Notes under the pieces: generated by a model
Database searches by the model: none
Seen by the model: the letters and a program-made list of their open reading frames with translations, nothing else
Told to the model about the DNA's origin: nothing
Translations under genes and position numbers: made by a program
Shown: positions 1,562-10,589 of the stretch, piece by piece
Layout of the letters: each line of letters opens with the position of its first letter
Numbering within the stretch: position 1 is the first letter of the stretch
IMG/VR virus record: IMGVR_UViG_2541047121_000017
Length of the DNA: 11,336 bases
Source of the DNA: a virus
Lineage: Duplodnaviria > Heunggongvirae > Uroviricota > Caudoviricetes
Strand: one strand, 5' to 3'

Positions 1562-1876
1562 TTAAACACCTAACGCCCGACGCCCCAGCGCCATTGCTGC
1601 TTTTATTGTGGAACCGAATCCCATAAAGAAATCAGCAACCAGATCACCAGGTCGACTACTGGCATTGATTATTTGCCTGAGCATATCCGCCGGTTTCTCG
1701 CACGGATGTTTACCCGGGTAGAACTGAACGGGCTTATGCGTCCTGACATCGGTATAAGGCACGGAGACTGATACGGAGAAATAGCGCCGGTGAGATTTAA
1801 ACTCATCCAGCAATTCAGAAGATTTGCAATTCAGTGAATCATGAGATACCACCAACTGGTGGTAGGATTGTCTCAA
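1562..1876 (-). pseudogene. 5'-truncated DNA methyltransferase remnant (N6A/N4C class; C-terminal portion only)
   Basis: 104-aa ORF carrying HPCEKP (like the HPTQKP motif) and DFFMGFGST (like the DPFxGSGTT AdoMet-binding motif). The N-terminal half, including any DPPY catalytic motif, is absent. Upstream is AT-rich non-coding DNA. Confidence 0.5.
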
Positions 1877-3263: not shown

Positions 3264-4016
3264 TCATCTCGTCACTTTCCTCAATTGTGTCTCAGCATAC
3301 GCTTCTTCCTGCCAGCACTTTGTAACCAGTTTATCAATGACATCTGCATATCCTTTGTACCACTGATAATCCGTCAGGTCTGGTACCAGCTTCTGGACAT
3401 GAAGCCGCGCCAGTGTGGTTGGTAAACGGCTAAACCGGTTTCCATTGCAACGCCCACAAACCTTATAAACAGGCGTGCCATGAAGCCTGGTTCTTTTTTC
3501 ATCCAGGACAATACCTTTACCCTTACACCCTCTGCACGCTGTGCTGACTTCTCCCTTACCATGACAATGCTGACACAGTTCCTTCACCCACTCTTCCTTG
3601 ATAACAGATTCCCCGCTTCTGGAGTGTTTCACCACCTCGCGCAATACATCATGAAATCCAGTACCAGCACAATGCTCACAGCGAGCCTTACTTGCCGCAG
3701 ACCTGGAATAATCAGCAAAGGCAAAATTCACAAGGTAAGGAATGATCTGTAGCCGGGTTTCTTCACTCAATTTGTTCAATGTCGGGTTATCCAGTGCCAT
3801 CGCGTAATTGAGCAGACCTTCAATCGCAAACTGAGGATCCTGAACACCAACTTTTGCCAGGAATAAGGCAAACCCAAGCGGTGCTTTCGACTGCACCATC
3901 CCCTGCGCAGCCATTACATCCGTAATTGTTAAACCACCAGAGCCTGTCGCCGGTGCGTCATCGCTCAATTTTGGAGATTTTGGGGAGTAATATTTCGGTA
4001 AGGCTTCAAAGTTCAT
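3264..4016 (-). CDS. Q: Late-gene antitermination protein Q (250-aa type with multiple CxxC/CxxH zinc-binding motifs)
   Basis: 250-aa ORF with CEHCAGTG, CQHCHGKG, CRGCKGKG and CGRCNG motifs; the N-terminus (…LPKYYSPKSPKLSDDAPATG…) matches my recollection of Q of E. coli cryptic lambdoid prophages (quuQ-like). Sits upstream of the late promoter/terminator and lysis genes. Confidence 0.85.
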   Translation of the reverse strand: MNFEALPKYYSPKSPKLSDDAPATGSGGLTITDVMAAQGMVQSKAPLGFALFLAKVGVQDPQFAIEGLLNYAMALDNPTLNKLSEETRLQIIPYLVNFAFADYSRSAASKARCEHCAGTGFHDVLREVVKHSRSGESVIKEEWVKELCQHCHGKGEVSTACRGCKGKGIVLDEKRTRLHGTPVYKVCGRCNGNRFSRLPTTLARLHVQKLVPDLTDYQWYKGYADVIDKLVTKCWQEEAYAETQLRKVTR

Positions 4017-4029
4017 GCTCGTTCTCCAC

Positions 4030-5025
4030 TTACGCCAGTACGCCTATTGCCAGCGCACGATCGATAAAACGAAATATCAGCTCCAGCTGGGAGCCATACT
4101 TCTCTTCAAATGCCACGGTATCCGCATGCAGCTCGTCGTGATGCTTTCTGCACAAAGGCAACACAAAGAGGTCATGCGCTTTTGTACCCATTCCTCCCTG
4201 ACCGTGACCTATCAGGTGGTGGGGATCATCAGCAGGCTTTCCACAACATGCACACGGCTGTGTCTTAACCCAGCGCGTGTACTTTTCATTAACCCAGCGG
4301 CGACGTTTTGGGCGTAACATAAAAGACTCCGGCGACTCAGGATCCACTTTCAGCGCCAGCACCTTTTTCGCTTTATCCTGGATGATGCTGGTGGCAGGAA
4401 CCGAAGGCACAAGGTCACTTTCCCGGGTAACAGACGGCACAACAGGCTTCGGTAATCTAAGTGCCTTACGGGCTGCACTTTCCGGTAAGGCATCCGCCAG
4501 GTCATTACGAATCAGCCACCAGCACAGTTCCGGCATTGTCACAACGTGACTGTCATCAAAACCGAGATCCCGACGCACAACAGACAACACCCAGCGGGCA
4601 CAGTTATCCGTTGCCATTGATTCCAGCCGTTCCGTGAACTGATCGCGCAGCTGGTTATCGCAGTGCCAGCACAGACGGATTGCGCCCGGAGCGTGTCGCA
4701 TTGTGGTCATGTTCTCGCTGTGCCAGTCGGAATGAGGCCACTGGCAGCCTTTTTCACGAAGTAACCAGCTTTCAAGACATTCCACGCCACCAGCACGACG
4801 GATCACTGCCTCATTGCGGAACACGGCCCGAACGGCAGGATCATCCGCCAGCGGTTGTGATGCCGCCGGAACGGCACCACTGGCGAAAGATGAATAACGT
4901 TCCGGCTCAGGCTCCAGCAGGACACGCCCCTGCATAAACAGGGGCATCAGCTCTGAACCTGGCCTGAACAATACGATCCCCATACGCGGGGCAATTTCAG
5001 GAGTCAGTAGTGCTCTCACGGTCAC
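4030..5025 (-). CDS. nin-region protein with C-terminal Cys/His-rich HNH-like domain (DUF968-like)
   Basis: 331-aa ORF whose C-terminus has CACCGKPADDPHHLIGHGQGG…LPLCRKHHDELH. The first codon is GTG; a GAGGT Shine-Dalgarno-like motif favours a GTG start at 5019-5025. Family assignment is from memory only. Confidence 0.65.
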   Translation of the reverse strand: MTVRALLTPEIAPRMGIVLFRPGSELMPLFMQGRVLLEPEPERYSSFASGAVPAASQPLADDPAVRAVFRNEAVIRRAGGVECLESWLLREKGCQWPHSDWHSENMTTMRHAPGAIRLCWHCDNQLRDQFTERLESMATDNCARWVLSVVRRDLGFDDSHVVTMPELCWWLIRNDLADALPESAARKALRLPKPVVPSVTRESDLVPSVPATSIIQDKAKKVLALKVDPESPESFMLRPKRRRWVNEKYTRWVKTQPCACCGKPADDPHHLIGHGQGGMGTKAHDLFVLPLCRKHHDELHADTVAFEEKYGSQLELIFRFIDRALAIGVLA

Positions 5026-5026
5026 C

Positions 5027-5836
5027 TCAATGAACGGTATCGAGCAGCTTTAACAGCTCAGGGAATCGGGATTCGAAGAAATGCGGCTGCGTCTCGCGCG
5101 GATTTGCGGGACTGGTGATGTTCTTGCCGAACATGCAGCCTTTCGCTGTCAGCGACCAGAATTTTTTGATGTTGTTAATCGCAGTGCGGCTGTATCGTTC
5201 ACGTTGTTCAACGATCCCCAGCTTCGCCATCTGGTGATATGCCTGATTAGCTGTCAGGCGGATACCATACTGCTTCAGCAGTGCACTCAATGATAGCGTG
5301 GGGCGGCTTGAGCCATCAGGCGCGTCAGCAGGAGCATCAATGGCATAGCGCGGTGCCAGATTCGGTAAGCCAACAGCCTCCTGGAGTTTCTGACAGGCAC
5401 CAAGCACTGAAGAGTTAGACAGGTTTAACTCCCGGCGCATAAAGTCCAGCAGGATCACGCCAGCCTGCATCTTGTCAGCAGCCTGTCCGGATAATTTTTC
5501 CGGTGCGCTGGTTACCATATCGAAAGTACGGATCACCTTCAGATGGAATGACGGGCTGATCCACATTGCATAGGCATACACCAGTTCCTTGCAGACATAC
5601 GTTCCCCGTTCATTTCCCCCATGAATCACACTCACCGGGTCAACACCCAAATTCTGGGTGTTGGTCAATTCATGAACAAGCTCAACAGTTTGTTGGCTGG
5701 AAAGAAACTTTCCCGGCTCCTTGGTTCTGGCATTTGCACCAGATGCTACTGCTGCGCGATGCAGATCGTTCAGGCTGTAACGCCCATAAGCATCACGACG
5801 AACTTCAATACCATCAATGACCATCAGATTATTCAT
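5027..5836 (-). CDS. KilA-N domain protein (Roi/antirepressor-like)
   Basis: 269-aa ORF; the N-terminus MNNLMVIDGIEVRRDAYGRYSLNDLHRAA… resembles KilA-N/APSES-type DNA-binding domains. Strong Shine-Dalgarno motif (GAGGAG) 8 nt upstream of the ATG. Confidence 0.7.
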   Translation of the reverse strand: MNNLMVIDGIEVRRDAYGRYSLNDLHRAAVASGANARTKEPGKFLSSQQTVELVHELTNTQNLGVDPVSVIHGGNERGTYVCKELVYAYAMWISPSFHLKVIRTFDMVTSAPEKLSGQAADKMQAGVILLDFMRRELNLSNSSVLGACQKLQEAVGLPNLAPRYAIDAPADAPDGSSRPTLSLSALLKQYGIRLTANQAYHQMAKLGIVEQRERYSRTAINNIKKFWSLTAKGCMFGKNITSPANPRETQPHFFESRFPELLKLLDTVH

Positions 5837-5855
5837 ACTTCGTTTCTCCTCTTAA

Positions 5856-6245
5856 TCAGGCGGCTGCACCCGCCGTTTTCTCGTACTTACTGATAGTGAT
5901 CTCGACCTTCCCTTCCGGGATAACCGGTCCCCACTCCACCAGCATTCTTTTCACCTGACTGTCGTCTTCCCACACACCCGCGTGGGTCAGGGCGTCAAAC
6001 AGCGCCTTGTTATAGTTGTCCAGATCGCGGATCCGGTTATCCGGAGGAAACAACACGATCTCCACTGAAGCAGGTGCCGACGTTGGTTTCGGCAGACGAC
6101 GTAACTGCTCAACTATTGCTGCGCACGCCGCGCTCTGGAATTTTCGCCCCGCCGCGCTTATCAGGCTCTTACCAGCAAACGCCCCTTTGTTGGGGTGTCG
6201 CCAGTACGTGTTCACGCTGGGCGGAAAAGGCAGGATCAGCTTCAT
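5856..6245 (-). CDS. rusA: RusA-family Holliday junction resolvase
   Basis: 129-aa ORF alignable to E. coli RusA (LPFPPSVNTYWRH…; …RDLDNYNKALFDALTHAGVWEDDSQV… vs RusA …[26 protein letters not shown]…). Its start overlaps the upstream stop (ATGA). Confidence 0.9.
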   Translation of the reverse strand: MKLILPFPPSVNTYWRHPNKGAFAGKSLISAAGRKFQSAACAAIVEQLRRLPKPTSAPASVEIVLFPPDNRIRDLDNYNKALFDALTHAGVWEDDSQVKRMLVEWGPVIPEGKVEITISKYEKTAGAAA

Positions 6246-6568
6246 ACTTTCAGGTCCCTCTCATGTAACCAGTGGGTTGCACGCAGCCTTGCGTTTTCCT
6301 CACCGGCAAGCAGTGCGCGGATAATCCCGACCGCCTCGCTGTCGTCGTCCTTCACCGCGATATGAAGCGTTATCCCCCGGGCCACGCCACGCTTTATCGT
6401 GATGACGCCTTTTTTCTCCAGTGCGCGAAGATGCTCCACCGCTGCATTCACTGAACGGTATCCCAGCATGGTTGCCACCTCCTGATTGGTTGGCGGGAAG
6501 CCACGTTCTTTCTGATAAGAAATCAGCATATCCAGCACCTGCTGCTGGCATTGAGTTAACGTCGTCAT
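6242..6568 (-). CDS. LexA N-terminal DNA-binding-domain homologue lacking the S24 peptidase domain (108 aa)
   Basis: Residues ~4-70 align with E. coli LexA 1-70 (LTxxQQxV…G.PPT..E.A..LG.RS.NAA.EHL.AL..KGVI.I..G..RGI.L). The ORF ends soon after a linker (…ALLAGEENA…) with no Ser/Lys catalytic domain. ATGA overlaps at both ends. Confidence 0.8.
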   Translation of the reverse strand: MTTLTQCQQQVLDMLISYQKERGFPPTNQEVATMLGYRSVNAAVEHLRALEKKGVITIKRGVARGITLHIAVKDDDSEAVGIIRALLAGEENARLRATHWLHERDLKV

Positions 6569-7218
6569 GCCGCCATCTCCCTGACCAGTTTTTCTGCCTG
6601 CTGGCGAACCTGCGCCAGAAAGGCCTCACCACATGCCTCAAGTTCATAGCGCCCGATGTAGCTGATTGCCGGTCCCTTCCAGGTCTTGTCGAAAACAGCA
6701 ATAGCACCAGCGAAGAAAGCGCCTGTCGGCACCTGCTTCTCATCCTTCGGGATAAACCAGGCAGGCAGTTCAAAACCAATACGCCCGCGAATAAAAGCAA
6801 TATGATCTGCATCTTCCGGCCACCACACTTCGCTGGTGGCAGCTTTGATCAGGAAAACATAGCGCCCGCCTTTATCACGCATGGCACTGGCATGCTTCAT
6901 GATGTAACGCATGCCGGTGATGTATTGCCCCTCATGCTGACTGGCGCGGCTGTATGGGGGATTACCAAAGGCAGCACCTTTAAGCTCCGCAAGACGTTCT
7001 GACCAGTCATGCGCCAGCGCGTTGTCTTCCGCAGTGTAATAAGCGGCACATTTGGCGTTATCACCGTCAGTGAACAGATCCAGAACAAACGGGCCAAACA
7101 GGGTGTTAATTCCCCAGAAAATGTTGTCCGGCGTGCGCCACTGATCGCCCACTTCCTTCAGTTCATGGGCTGGTTTGTTCCGCAGCTCCACCAGCGCCTG
7201 GCAATATTTATTACTCAT
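6565..7218 (-). CDS. Phage orphan N6-adenine DNA methyltransferase (Dam-like)
   Basis: 217-aa ORF from the ATG at 7216-7218, with catalytic NPPY motif (AFGNPPYS). Start overlaps the upstream stop (TAATG). No adjacent restriction endonuclease. Confidence 0.85.
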   Translation of the reverse strand: MSNKYCQALVELRNKPAHELKEVGDQWRTPDNIFWGINTLFGPFVLDLFTDGDNAKCAAYYTAEDNALAHDWSERLAELKGAAFGNPPYSRASQHEGQYITGMRYIMKHASAMRDKGGRYVFLIKAATSEVWWPEDADHIAFIRGRIGFELPAWFIPKDEKQVPTGAFFAGAIAVFDKTWKGPAISYIGRYELEACGEAFLAQVRQQAEKLVREMAA

Positions 7219-7712
7219 TAAGCCCCCACGTAATTCCCTGACAGATACCACTCTTCACCCGATACAGCGCGCTTGCTGCTTTTCCGTAAGCACCGCTCAC
7301 GACGCGCCAGAAAATTGTTTCGTTCTGGCTGGGAGTGGCTTTCACGGAATGCCGCCATCCACACCGTTGCAGCACGACGGTATAAGCCCCTGGACTCCAG
7401 TTCTTCAGCCTGGCGGGTCAGGCACAAAATCACCCGGGGATCGTTAGTGCCGACATAGAAATTGCGCACAGGTCTGGTTTCACGAACTGGTTGTGGTTCC
7501 GGCTCCTGCGCTCTCTCAGTCAGGCGCGGGAAATGTCTGCGTGTATCCCCTTCACAACGGTGAGCCACACGCCCACTCTGACGTAACTTGCTTGCAGACT
7601 GCAGAACGCGCTGCCGTGAGTAACCTGCAAAAGCATCCGCAATGTCTCCGGAAGTACAGCCCGGATGGGCTTCAATGAATTTCTGAACGTCATTCAAAAG
7701 ACTCATGCTCAC
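7218..7712 (-). CDS. Hypothetical protein with C-terminal PerC-like motif (possible PerC/Pch-family transcriptional activator), 164 aa
   Basis: C-terminal AEELESRGLYRRAATVWMAAF resembles the conserved PerC-family signature as I remember it; the N-terminal ~60 aa looks winged-helix-like. ATGA overlap with the initiator stop supports a real gene. Functional call is tentative. Confidence 0.5.
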   Translation of the reverse strand: MSMSLLNDVQKFIEAHPGCTSGDIADAFAGYSRQRVLQSASKLRQSGRVAHRCEGDTRRHFPRLTERAQEPEPQPVRETRPVRNFYVGTNDPRVILCLTRQAEELESRGLYRRAATVWMAAFRESHSQPERNNFLARRERCLRKSSKRAVSGEEWYLSGNYVGA

Positions 7713-8650
7713 CCCCTGAATCCTGCCGGGATCTGGCTGTAGTCCACGTTGTCGTAACTGGCTTTGAAGTACGGGTCCTCGCGTTTTTCGGTGTACGTGC
7801 TGACGGACGGCGATAAGCGCAGGGAAAGCTCATCCCATTTTTCCCGCAGCTTCGACGGGCTGAGCACGTTACGGCACCAGAACGGATCGCGACTGACGCG
7901 GCTGTACATCTCGCAGATTTGTTTATGAGTACGACCATCCTGCACACACATCAGGCGAATTTCGTTTGCCCAGGCTGTCCAGTTCGGTTCTTTGGGACGA
8001 ACCACCTCGCCGTCACATTCGGCGGCATGCTCGTACAGGGCGATGATTTTTTTCCAGAGCCACTGTGCACAGGTCAAATCATCCTGCGTCCCCCACTGGC
8101 GCTTTTTAGGGCTGAATACAACCGCATCAGGATGGCGAGTTAAAAAATCCTGTTCATCCGTCTGCGTGTCCGGTTGCGAAGCGTCCGGACGAGAAGGTTT
8201 TTTATCTGACGGATCATGTTTTGATTTTACTGACGGATCCCCGCCAGATTCTGACGGGTGAAAACCCGCTTTTTTGCCAGATTTCGACGCATCAAATTTT
8301 GACGGGTCAGATTTTGATGCGTCAGATTTTGACGGGTCAGAATCTGACAGTTGAGAAAATGCCGCTGCCTGAAGCTTCGCAACGTTAAGCTGATAAACAT
8401 TCGACGCATTGCGGTTACCCTGGCGACGCGCCTTACGCGTTAACCAGCCTTCTGCTTCCAGCCGTGCGATAGCCGTTCTGACGGTGCTCATCCCCGCGCC
8501 AATCTGGCGGGCAATGGTTTCAATTGATGGCCAGCACACACCTTCGTCATTACTGAAATCAGCCAGGCGGGCCATAATTGCCACGCTGGATAACTTCATG
8601 CCTGACGCAGCGCAACCATCCCATACATAGCCGGTTAATTTAGTGCTCAT
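7709..8650 (-). CDS. Replication initiator (lambda O-like organisation: N-terminal HTH domain, iteron-encoded repetitive linker, C-terminal domain)
   Basis: 313-aa ORF. N-terminus has an HTH (…SVAIMARLADFSNDEGVCWPSIETIARQIGAGMSTVRTAIARLEAEGWL…). The central region (SDPSKSDASKSDPSKFDASKS) is encoded by tandem DNA repeats. Positioned after the cII-like gene. Confidence 0.7.
   Translation of the reverse strand: MSTKLTGYVWDGCAASGMKLSSVAIMARLADFSNDEGVCWPSIETIARQIGAGMSTVRTAIARLEAEGWLTRKARRQGNRNASNVYQLNVAKLQAAAFSQLSDSDPSKSDASKSDPSKFDASKSGKKAGFHPSESGGDPSVKSKHDPSDKKPSRPDASQPDTQTDEQDFLTRHPDAVVFSPKKRQWGTQDDLTCAQWLWKKIIALYEHAAECDGEVVRPKEPNWTAWANEIRLMCVQDGRTHKQICEMYSRVSRDPFWCRNVLSPSKLREKWDELSLRLSPSVSTYTEKREDPYFKASYDNVDYSQIPAGFRG
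8203..8355. repeat. Iteron-like tandem array (about 15-bp units, consensus near GATTTTGACGGGTCA); candidate phage origin inside the initiator gene
   Basis: At least seven imperfect direct repeats with core TGACGG / GACGGG / GATGCG at roughly 15-bp spacing between 8203 and 8355. This is analogous to ori-lambda inside gene O. Confidence 0.6.
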
Positions 8651-8659
8651 GACCGACCT

Positions 8660-8998
8660 CTATTTCCCTGAATTTACGACGAAACTGTTCGAGCGGGCTG
8701 AAGCACTCATGCTCATAGCCTTCGCGGAGGTAGATAACCCGTTGTGTTTCCGGTTCCCAACGAATGACTCTGACGGGCACTCCGTAGTGATCTTTGAACC
8801 AGCGGTTAACTTGTCGCAAAGGACTGTCTCCTTTTGCCTGTTGAAATCACCCACAGCCCACTCTGCAAAGCTGTGGGTTACAATTTCCCTGTCACCTGGT
8901 ACATTCACTGCATAGCAATACTCCACCTTCGCTTTTCCACCCGGTACAGGAAGTGCAATCAGTTGCGAGCGACGGTAGTGTGTTGTTAAACTGTTCAT
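8660..8998 (-). CDS. Hypothetical protein (112 aa) between the cII-like and initiator genes
   Basis: ORF start overlaps the cII-like stop (ATGA) and ends 9 nt before the initiator ATG, fitting operon packing. The C-terminus is low-complexity ([17 protein letters not shown]) and a 9-bp-stem hairpin lies inside, so coding status is uncertain. Confidence 0.4.
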
Positions 8999-9546
8999 GC
9001 GTTAGTTTCTCCACAGTCACGACACGCCACGGCGCCCGGAGCTGCACACTCGCGGGCGTCATTACTTTCTGAAATGCAAAAAATTTTGTAGACCAGTGCT
9101 GCATGCTCCTGCAGCTTCGAAATTGAGAGGTACAGCTCGTCGTTAATTGCTGTCTTCTCATGCGGTTCCACTACACCGTCTTCAATTGCTGAACGAATCT
9201 GTTTTGAATAACTGCCGATCTGTTCAATGACCTCCAGCAGGCGTTGGTTGATATCGGCGTTGTCCACATCCTCGACATCAGGAAGAGACACAAAGACGCC
9301 ATTTGCAGACTGCGCCACAGCGTCAGCAATGAAGTGAGTTCCACCAGCACGTTGCAAAATCATTGCCCATCCCAGCGGGAAAATCTGATCGCCATCGGCA
9401 CGAAGGCGGTTAAATAATGCGTTCTCTGTTACATCCAGCCAGTCAGCAGCTTCAGCGTACCCCCCCGGCAACGCTGCGATAGTTTTTCTGACAGCTTTCA
9501 CGTACCACTCAGGCTGTTTTTCTACTTTCCAGTGATGCTTACCCAC
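8995..9546 (-). CDS. CII-like early regulatory protein (CP76/YdaT-like family), 183 aa
   Basis: GTG start at 9544-9546 with a near-perfect Shine-Dalgarno motif (AGGAGGTGA) 5 nt upstream. Sits immediately after the cro-like gene. Family assignment is by synteny and general resemblance, not a verified alignment. Confidence 0.6.
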
Positions 9547-9799
9547 GGTTCACCTCCTGTTCCTGTGGTTTAAACCCATTCTGGTTTTGGCTAGATTGAA
9601 AACGTGCCGGATAAAGAATCTGCATTTCGCTGACTTCACCCTTAAAAAAATTGGCTAAACGTTCTGCAAGCTCGATAGATGGAATCTGCTCCAGCCTCTC
9701 AATACGACTCAACGTCGCTGGATTGACTTGAACACCCGCAGCAACATGCTGCAAAGTGAAACCATGCGCCTTACGCACATTTCGTAATGGTGATTGCAT
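9539..9799 (-). CDS. cro: Cro-like HTH (XRE-family) regulator, 86 aa
   Basis: HTH signature (RKAHGFTLQHVAAGVQVNPATLSRIERLEQIPS…). Transcribed divergently from the cI-like gene, with a GGAGG Shine-Dalgarno motif 4 nt upstream of the ATG. Confidence 0.75.
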   Translation of the reverse strand: MQSPLRNVRKAHGFTLQHVAAGVQVNPATLSRIERLEQIPSIELAERLANFFKGEVSEMQILYPARFQSSQNQNGFKPQEQEVNRG

Positions 9800-9896: not shown

Positions 9897-10589
9897 ATGA
9901 ACATAGGAAACCGAGTCAGACAACTTCGCCAAGCGAAGAACATGAAAATCGCCGATCTCGCTGAAGCGATAGGAGTAGATGCGGCGAACATCTCGCGCTT
10001 AGAAACGGGTAAGCAAAAACAATTTACCGAACAAACACTGAGTAATATTGCCAAGAGCTTAGGTGTTGATATTGCTGATCTCTTTACCTCTGCCCACAAA
10101 AGTAATACTGTATATAAAAACAGTAATAATGAGGATGTTGCGCAGGTGAAGGATGTGTTCCGTATTGAAATGCTGGATATCAGTGCCAGTGCGGGAAATG
10201 GCCTTATCCAGGGCGGTGATGTCATTGATGTGATTCATGCCATCGAATACAGAACTGATAATGCTGTATCAATGTTCGGCGGACGACCAGCCAATCACAT
10301 CAAAGTTATCAACGTTCGTGGGGACAGTATGTGTCCAACCATTGAGCCAGGAGATCTCATCTTCGTTGATGTCAGCATCAATCAGTTTGATGGTGATGGT
10401 ATATATGTCTTTGGTTTTGATGACAAAACATACGTTAAAAGACTTCAAATGATTCCTGACAAACTGCTGGTGATTTCTGATAACCAGATTTACCGTGAAT
10501 GGGGAATTACTAGCGAAAACGAACACCGATTCATGGTCTTTGGAAAGGTCTTAATCAGTCAGTCGCAAACCCTTAAGAGACATAATTAA
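9897..10589 (+). CDS. cI: CI-like repressor (N-terminal XRE HTH plus C-terminal S24 LexA-like autopeptidase domain), 230 aa
   Basis: N-terminal HTH (RVRQLRQAKNMKIADLAEAIGVDAANISRLETGK) and C-terminal S24 signature with the catalytic Ser in GDSM (RGDSMCPTIEPGDLIFVD) and Lys in YVKRL. Divergent from the cro-like gene. Confidence 0.9.
   Translation: MNIGNRVRQLRQAKNMKIADLAEAIGVDAANISRLETGKQKQFTEQTLSNIAKSLGVDIADLFTSAHKSNTVYKNSNNEDVAQVKDVFRIEMLDISASAGNGLIQGGDVIDVIHAIEYRTDNAVSMFGGRPANHIKVINVRGDSMCPTIEPGDLIFVDVSINQFDGDGIYVFGFDDKTYVKRLQMIPDKLLVISDNQIYREWGITSENEHRFMVFGKVLISQSQTLKRHN
10106..10125. promoter_or_regulatory. Near-consensus LexA (SOS) box TACTGTATATAAAAACAGTA inside the cI coding sequence
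   Basis: CTGT-N8-ACAG with TA flanks and an AT-only spacer at 10106-10125; two mismatches to the E. coli consensus TACTGTATATATATACAGTA. It is the only CTGT-N8-ACAG in the window and encodes the cI interdomain linker (…TVYKNSN…). Confidence 0.6.

Follow-up and report, generated by a model that had tools for sequence, protein, structure and literature searches.

A candidate replication origin within the initiator gene of an SfII/SfIV-type lambdoid prophage

The DNA analyzed here (the window) is a stretch of 11,336 nucleotides from a virus of the Caudoviricetes, IMG/VR record IMGVR_UViG_2541047121_000017, and the element in question is a set of short repeats within its replication initiator gene, studied as a candidate origin of replication. 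Judged by its sequence, the window comes from a lambdoid prophage of the SfII/SfIV type and corresponds to its early-right and lysis region; most genes are carried by the minus strand. The initiator gene, defined from the list of open reading frames (ORFs) and their translations, occupies positions 7709-8650 of the minus strand, encodes 313 amino acids and belongs to a cro-cII-O early-right operon. Between positions 7600 and 8800 the DNA is 98-99% identical to that of the Shigella phages SfII and SfIV and of several E. coli phages, in which the initiator gene is labeled as O protein, replication protein or primosomal protein. A "replication module" was described in the SfIV genome paper, but not its origin (PMC3851460).

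Profile and homology matches assign to the initiator a winged-helix N-terminal domain, a repeat-encoded linker and a lambda-O-like C-terminal domain, and the whole protein matches PHROG 391 ("replication initiation O-like") with an E value of 4e-135. The N-terminal domain (amino acids 1 to ~95; 8366-8650, minus strand) is recognized by Pfam HTH_36 over amino acids 23-70 (E 4e-11), along with matches to GntR, MarR and DnaD_N, and it is the presumed reader of the repeats. The C-terminal domain (amino acids 166-277; 7820-8155, minus strand) was located by tblastn, being 39% identical to the O proteins of lambda, phage 21 and 933W with E values around 1e-17 (9e-18 for lambda). A sequence search of the PDB with the initiator returned weak matches to winged-helix proteins of the MarR family and nothing closer, an NCBIfam scan gave no family over the cut-off, and no plasmid Rep family reached the Pfam cut-off (RP-C scored 17 bits against a cut-off of 24). 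The label "primosomal protein I" (DnaT) used in some records was discarded, as it has no Pfam support for this initiator.

The repeats lie between these two domains, at nucleotides 303-450 of the 942 of the gene (32-48% of its length), so the original prediction was right in placing them in the middle of the 313-amino-acid ORF and in having them encode its repetitive linker, which reads LSDSDPSKSDASKSDPSKFDASKSG...PSESGGDPSV on the gene strand (in an alternative rendering, DSDPSKSDASKSDPSKFDASKS...PSESGGDPSV). The same prediction had counted at least seven tandem units of about 15 bp. The repeats are found where it placed them and exceed chance, but just five are in tandem: eight related elements span 8201-8348, of which five are cores that recur strictly every 15 bp (8276-8348), one is a further full site and two are half-sites. 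Each unit consists, on the gene strand, of a near-palindrome of 13 bp, GTCA[A/G]AATCTGAC, and two variable bases after it, in such a way that only 2 bp separate neighboring 13-bp sites; the period corresponds to about 1.4 helical turns, with a super-period of 30 bp. Tandem Repeats Finder, a check proposed with the prediction, defined the period as 15 (8278-8341, 4.3 copies, 81% matches, score 86), with a period of 30 as a further solution (score 100); a repeat-family search gave six copies with spacings of 33, 15, 15, 15 and 15 and many inverted-repeat pairs. Allowing up to three mismatches, the core GTCARAATCTGAC has 19 matches in the 11.3-kb window against 5.9 expected, a number reached by none of 200 shuffled sequences, and all window matches with up to two mismatches are confined to 8243-8348.

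The five tandem cores are numbered here from the promoter-proximal side. Iteron 1 (8336-8348) is a perfect palindrome, GTCAGA-T-TCTGAC on the gene strand, with 0 or 1 mismatch to GTCARAATCTGAC depending on the strand. Iteron 2, GTCAAAATCTGAC (8321-8333), lies 15 bp from it and has no mismatch, and the 15-bp period is continued by iteron 3, ATCAAAATCTGAC (8306-8318, one mismatch), iteron 4, GTCAAAATTTGAT (8291-8303, two mismatches) and iteron 5, GTCGAAATCTGGC (8276-8288, two mismatches). An A-tract spacer, GGCAAAAAAGCGGGTTTTCA on the gene strand (8258-8275), connects the tandem array to a distal 17-bp palindrome, CCGTCAGAATCTGGCGG (8241-8257), that contains iteron 6 (8243-8255, one mismatch), 33 bp from the tandem cores. 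The distal palindrome is the best-conserved element of the region, present in 76 loci, and the spacer is kept in most homologues as a run of A/T of varying sequence. Beyond the palindrome there are two direct repeats of 15 bp each, GATCCGTCAG[T/A]AAAA, at 8225-8239 and 8201-8215 (24 bp apart), which retain the left half-site alone and hold one GATC each (8236 and 8212). A terminator-like hairpin was noticed on the antisense strand between iteron 5 and the distal palindrome (8255-8268, plus strand; CGGGTGAAAACCCG followed by T6), but its reading as a terminator was dropped, as homologues do not keep the stem.

The half-sites fall in or next to a candidate DNA-unwinding element at 8192-8231, identified by composition and by a nearest-neighbor stability scan. 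No other 40 bp of the gene are as AT-rich or as unstable as this tract, which is 70% AT, ranks at the 97th percentile of the window and adjoins the array on its promoter-distal side. The original prediction saw no strongly AT-rich region next to the array; such a tract does exist there, although it is weaker than the 80% AT of its lambda counterpart. The two GATC sites, in the candidate unwinding element or next to it, each start a GATCCGTCAG half-site repeat, and this arrangement is common among the homologues: 66 of 77 have at least two GATC within 75 nt past the last core, a density of 26/kb compared to 3.9/kb elsewhere. A link of the GATC pair with Dam and SeqA is possible. A DnaA-box reading of GATCCACAA, present in some homologues, was also tried and abandoned, because its counterpart in the window, GATCCGTCA, differs from TTATCCACA at four positions.

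Homologues were collected with the N-terminal 98 amino acids alone as query, so that the repeats could not bias the search. This gave 80 prophage loci from bacterial assemblies (one genome per species), to which four phages were added (Klebsiella phage 1 LV-2017, Citrobacter phiNP, Yersinia YeP3 and phiP27); the homologues come from across Enterobacterales, and their N-domains are 52-100% identical to that of the window. All full-length homologues carry an array of like kind at a like place, and the core was found at the matching position in the 77 unique homologues, where its absence from homologous initiator genes would have spoken against an origin; cores with up to two mismatches number a median of 4 per homologue (range 0-7). 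Among 73 unique loci, core density was 14.1/kb within the linker vs 0.025/kb outside it (358 kb of flanking DNA), and 178 of 244 core spacings were exactly 15 bp. In some E. coli chromosomes (L059, L083 and a hit in E. coli JME67, 4.64 Mb) just the first ~79 amino acids of the initiator are left, fused to a terminase-like ORF, which looks like the product of deletions in which the iterons were lost. Four further loci labeled as Vagococcus, Chryseobacterium, Martelella and Pseudomonas lundensis (L013, L037, L042 and L074) hold the cassette at 66-89% amino-acid identity, contamination or mislabeling being likelier than these hosts being true.

Several lines of evidence indicate that the repeats are constrained at the level of nucleotides and not of amino acids. 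The first is codon choice. In 250 in-frame D-x-S-K-S units, the first serine is TCA in 222 and the second TCT in 186, compared to 16% and 9% of the serine codons of the same genes; lysine is AAA in 158 of 158 (background 61%) and aspartate GAC in 180 of 211 (background 46%), the free codon being "x", that is, the 2-3-nt spacer between cores. Codons are likewise fixed in the block of the distal palindrome and half-sites (Val GTA in 65 of 66 genes, Asp GAT in 66 of 66, Pro CCG in 63 of 66). The second is codon-position entropy, which over a 23-codon block around the distal palindrome of these 66 genes takes values of 0.43, 0.47 and 0.53 bits for positions 1, 2 and 3, whereas third positions at conserved amino-acid columns of the N-domain reach 1.42 bits, so that for the N-domain it is selection on the protein that is evident. 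Amino-acid replacements (S/P, D/H) are tolerated in the repeat region where the nucleotides allow them. Third, pairwise third-position identity to four full-length homologues is higher in the origin segment (0.62-0.79) than in the N-domain (0.40-0.48) or the C-domain (0.34-0.55). Finally, in P27 and L075 the motif TTTT[C/G]ACCC[G/T]TCAGAATCTG is retained in the +2 frame, encoding VFTRQNL instead of GFHPSES, and the usual frame resumes a few codons past it. A 60-amino-acid ORF at 8227-8409, dismissed in the original prediction as a by-product of the repeats, is indeed best seen so: it runs in the +1 frame of the same strand, encodes TRQNL repeats, and ATG-initiated ORFs of at least 50 amino acids recur there in just 32 of the 77 homologues.

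The arrays also change in number. Near-identical E. coli and Shigella prophages from IMG/VR (L086-L165), all with an identical N-domain, vary by whole 15-bp (5-codon) units, in such a way that gain and loss of units yields initiators of 308, 313, 318 and 323 amino acids; in one of them (L102) the copy is frame-shifted to 145 amino acids.

Comparison of mosaic phages delimits an exchangeable cassette on the minus strand, at ~8206-8644, that comprises the N-domain, the iterons and the AT-rich element. In phage mEp460_4F5, two stretches match the window, 7001-8205 at 97% identity and 8645-9119 at 91%, whereas the DNA that joins them is unrelated and holds another N-domain, its own 23-24-bp repeat in 5.4 copies and then an AT-rich 12-bp repeat. 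Conversely, phiNP shares with the window only 8172-8649 and YeP3 only 8195-8626. These mosaic junctions imply that N-domain, iterons and AT-rich element are swapped as one unit. Consistent with this, orf39 of SfV has a third type of N-domain with 21-24-bp repeats of its own, and a single kind of N-domain with its repeats is joined to at least four unrelated C-terminal types (lambda-O-C, Phg_2220_C in the majority, P27-type and L082-type). For this count the types were assigned by motif, a single-linkage clustering of the C-halves having been discarded because a shared tail merged all of them. The genes beside N-domain and repeats differ as well, as seen among L002-L005. Taken together, these comparisons argue that the repeat sequence is specific to the N-terminal DNA-binding domain and inherited with it. 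One of the phages deserves a remark on its name: the GenBank phiP27 (L005, AJ298298) encodes an initiator of the HTH_36 type (L17) and, after it, a DnaC-like protein (L18), whereas for a Stx phage "P27" both O and P are reported to be lambda-like, with six iterons of the lambda type (PMC7466680), so the two may be different phages under one name.

The repeats also show dyad symmetry. The cores are imperfect inverted repeats, GTCAGA-N-TCTGAC, and the distal palindrome is self-complementary at 14-16 of its 17 positions. In diverged lineages, where it takes the forms CCTCCAGAATCTGGAGG or TCCAAAATCTGGA, its arms have changed in complementary fashion, with GTCA...TGAC becoming TCCA...TGGA. Complementarity between core positions 2 and 12 exceeded that of shuffled sequences, which equaled it in 0 of 2000 cases for all sites and in 5 of 2000 for distinct sites; since relatedness inflates such counts, symmetry is the evidence to which we give least weight. 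The most diverged N-domains (L082 and L084, 52-53% identity) are accompanied by a 33-bp repeat, GAACCTCCAGTATTTAGAGCCACAAGTGGACTT, between two CCTCCAGAATCTGGAGG palindromes, with three copies in L082 and about one in L084; it encodes EPPVFRATSGL and could represent either an iteron that has diverged or a second class of repeat.

Origins made of iterons within the initiator gene have been described in lambda, Stx phages, P22 and L (PMC7466680, PMC8022706, PMC3349717). In the lambda origin, four iterons of 18 bp each occupy the interval from 39 to 48% of gene O, and a 40-bp tract with 80% AT comes after them (PMC3349717, PMC7466680, and the annotated sequence). The window resembles it in having the repeats inside its own initiator gene, at the junction of N- and C-domains (32-48% of the gene), where they encode the linker, in the dyad symmetry of every repeat, in the promoter-distal position of its AT-rich tract (although this is weaker and contains half-sites), in its pR-type operon after cro and cII and in its homologous C-domain (39% identity). 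As in lambda and the 933W-type Stx phages with six iterons, repeat copy number differs among relatives (PMC7466680). Furthermore, the two arms of the distal palindrome, CGTCAGA and TCTGGCG (7 nt each), recur immediately to the right of the AT-rich tract of lambda, although spaced by 4 nt instead of 1 (CGTCAGAGAATTCTGGCGAATCC in lambda, L166, ~555-580, vs CGTCAGAATCTGGCGGGGATCC in the window); this likeness could reflect either shared ancestry or a shared host-factor site. The AT-rich repeats of mEp460_4F5 also hold CAGAGAAT.

The differences from lambda are equally clear. The N-domain is of the HTH_36 type, the lambda-O N-terminal family being missing among the Pfam hits and the tblastn match being limited to the C-domain. 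There are five iterons spaced by 15 bp plus a sixth, each of 13 bp, compared to four of 18-19 bp at 20-24-bp spacing, and the palindrome precedes the AT-rich tract, whereas in lambda it follows. The initiator is not followed by a P helicase-loader gene, and a methyltransferase gene is often linked to it in relatives. A profile search of the window proteins found no helicase or loader gene (lambda P, DnaC/IstB, DnaB) from cro to Q (3264-9799), although the C-domain is of the lambda O type, whose usual partner is P; a DnaC- or P-like gene lies downstream of the initiator in just 8 of the 73 unique loci. In contrast, in 54 of them a DNA methyltransferase is encoded no more than 2.5 kb past the initiator. 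The genes are of diverse types (Dam PF05869-like, D12-class, Dcm-like and MT-A70-like) and often overlap the initiator stop codon by 4 nt; they are mostly missing from the loci that have a DnaC- or P-like gene. In this window a PerC/YfdN-like gene separates the initiator from the Dam gene.

Other origins are similar in part. The Salmonella phages P22 and L, also lambdoid, have distantly related initiators encoded by gene 18, and inside each coding sequence lies a distinct family of short repeats, as here. Their repeats are four of ~20 bp in P22 and six of 11 bp in L, initiator specificity and iterons change jointly, and the origin was inferred by the logic also used here (PMC8022706); however, there the initiator has a phage-encoded helicase of the DnaB type (gene 12) as its partner, which is lacking in this case, and the repeat sequences are unrelated. 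With iteron plasmids of the RepA/RepE/pi type the window shares a winged-helix initiator, an array of short repeats beside an AT-rich element and, if our proposal holds, a dependence on host helicase-loading factors, but in the plasmids the repeats are direct, measure ~17-22 bp, usually keep helical phase and lie outside the rep gene, whereas here they are palindromic, intragenic and spaced by 15 bp. Finally, clustered and conserved GATC sites at the presumed unwinding element, together with a linked methyltransferase gene, recall Dam-regulated origins such as E. coli oriC and P1 oriR. Here there are only 2-3 GATC, and the methyltransferases found in linkage belong to several unrelated types, not every one of them specific for GATC, so this likeness can be taken as a lead only.

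On these grounds we consider it very likely that the segment 8192-8348 is the replication origin of the SfII/SfIV-type lambdoid prophage, embedded in the linker-coding part of its initiator gene. The original prediction of a candidate origin mirroring that of lambda is thereby supported by the comparison of sequences, through conservation of the repeats as DNA among homologues and their inheritance with the N-domain. The principle is already textbook as the lambda paradigm, and what is new are these particular iterons, so far unannotated: a literature search for iterons of SfII, SfIV and SfV and for the motif string gave no earlier description, the matches to the string being human primers. 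Several points weigh against this reading. The literature search found no experimental binding or autonomous replication for this initiator family; the 15-bp spacing, with gaps of 2 bp, makes the stoichiometry and geometry of binding uncertain; the AT-rich tract has 70% AT over 40 bp vs 80% in lambda; and no helicase loader is encoded, so the lambda mechanism is not transferable as a whole. In addition, the sequences compared share descent and the arrays grow by duplication of units, hence unit counts are not independent, and the contrast of codon positions within genes controls for shared descent only partly.

By analogy with the lambda origin, we infer that the initiator binds the repeats, that the AT-rich tract is unwound and that the element supports replication. 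In the proposed mechanism, dimers of the N-terminal winged helix would bind the five packed 13-bp palindromic iterons and the sixth site within the 17-bp palindrome, and an O-some-like nucleoprotein complex would form on them. Such a complex would destabilize the adjacent, moderately AT-rich tract 8192-8231, with its two half-sites and two GATC, and the lambda-O-like C-domain would then recruit the host replicative helicase. A more specific version, in which this is an "initiator-only" origin where the host helicase is loaded without a phage loader through a C-domain of the P-partner type and firing is gated by adenine methylation (on account of the conserved GATC pair at the candidate unwinding element and of the methyltransferase genes placed directly after the initiator in most relatives), appears rather unlikely to us, but if true it would mean that phage origins can be controlled in another way than in lambda.

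Three other explanations of the repeats have to be weighed. They could be regulatory sites, bound by the initiator or by another DNA-binding protein of the phage, for autorepression, a transcriptional roadblock or copy control by "handcuffing", with the origin located elsewhere. Arrays of winged-helix sites also serve as operators or as incompatibility and handcuffing loci in iteron plasmids, and the small winged-helix protein encoded alongside (PerC/YfdN-like, 7218-7712) could be a candidate to act on them. Nevertheless, the sites are inherited with the initiator N-domain and not with the neighboring genes, which vary in L002-L005, and sites with up to two mismatches are essentially missing elsewhere in the window and in the 358 kb of flanking DNA, so that no second array is available as origin; the adjoining AT-rich tract is also in keeping with an origin. 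We regard this alternative as improbable. More doubtful still is that the conserved block serves as a recombination "linker" where modules meet, kept by or for exchange between mosaic phages. It would account for the mosaic junctions found on either side of the cassette (8195-8206 and 8644-8649) and for a block more alike between genera than the flanking coding DNA, but these junctions border the block distally and none falls within the iterons, and the palindromic units, their 15-bp phasing, their symmetric changes and the replacement of the repeats along with a different N-domain are left unexplained. Lastly, that the repeats are a flexible, low-complexity DPSKS linker produced by slippage, whose DNA has no role in cis, is extremely improbable and largely refuted by the codon-position tests: although the region does encode a Ser/Asp/Lys/Pro-rich linker between folded domains and near-identical prophages do gain and lose whole units, synonymous and non-synonymous sites are equally constrained, S/P and D/H changes are allowed, the motif is kept out of frame in P27 and L075, and the units are DNA palindromes with symmetric changes for which a protein-level explanation is absent.

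The origin reading has practical weight given the spread of the element: the cassette (8190-8650) is present in 2006 of 5426 complete E. coli genomes, where RefSeq labels the gene "helix-turn-helix domain-containing protein" and the origin is unannotated. A defined origin would provide a cis element for studies of replication, incompatibility and induction in the serotype-converting Shigella phages of the SfII/SfIV type and in related prophages. It would also be a clean natural case of one stretch of DNA acting as protein code and as predicted binding sites, with a frame-shifted lineage included, and conservation at third codon positions in a linker offers a simple recipe to find embedded origins in other initiator families. 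As the lambda paradigm is repeated, the result is a useful annotation and not a conceptual surprise; the loader-free architecture and the linkage with GATC and methyltransferase genes are the sole parts that could bring novelty.

With respect to the remaining genes of the window, the initiator is preceded in the early-right operon by a Cro-like protein (9539-9799), a CII (CP76)-like protein (8995-9546) and a 112-amino-acid protein of unassigned function (8660-8998), with a cI-like repressor on the plus strand (9897-10589). The PerC/YfdN-like gene and the Dam methylase gene (6565-7251) come after it, followed in order by genes for a protein with a LexA DNA-binding domain, RusA, KilA-N, DUF968/HNH, antiterminator Q, holin and Rz. 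A promoter scan of 7900-8800 detected none, and an Rfam scan of the entire window gave no family at the gathering score, so an RNA element is unsupported. Near the lysis cassette, a 104-amino-acid ORF (1562-1876, minus strand) matches only the C-terminal part of the N6_N4_Mtase family, at profile positions 156-209 of 221, and is probably a truncated methylase gene.

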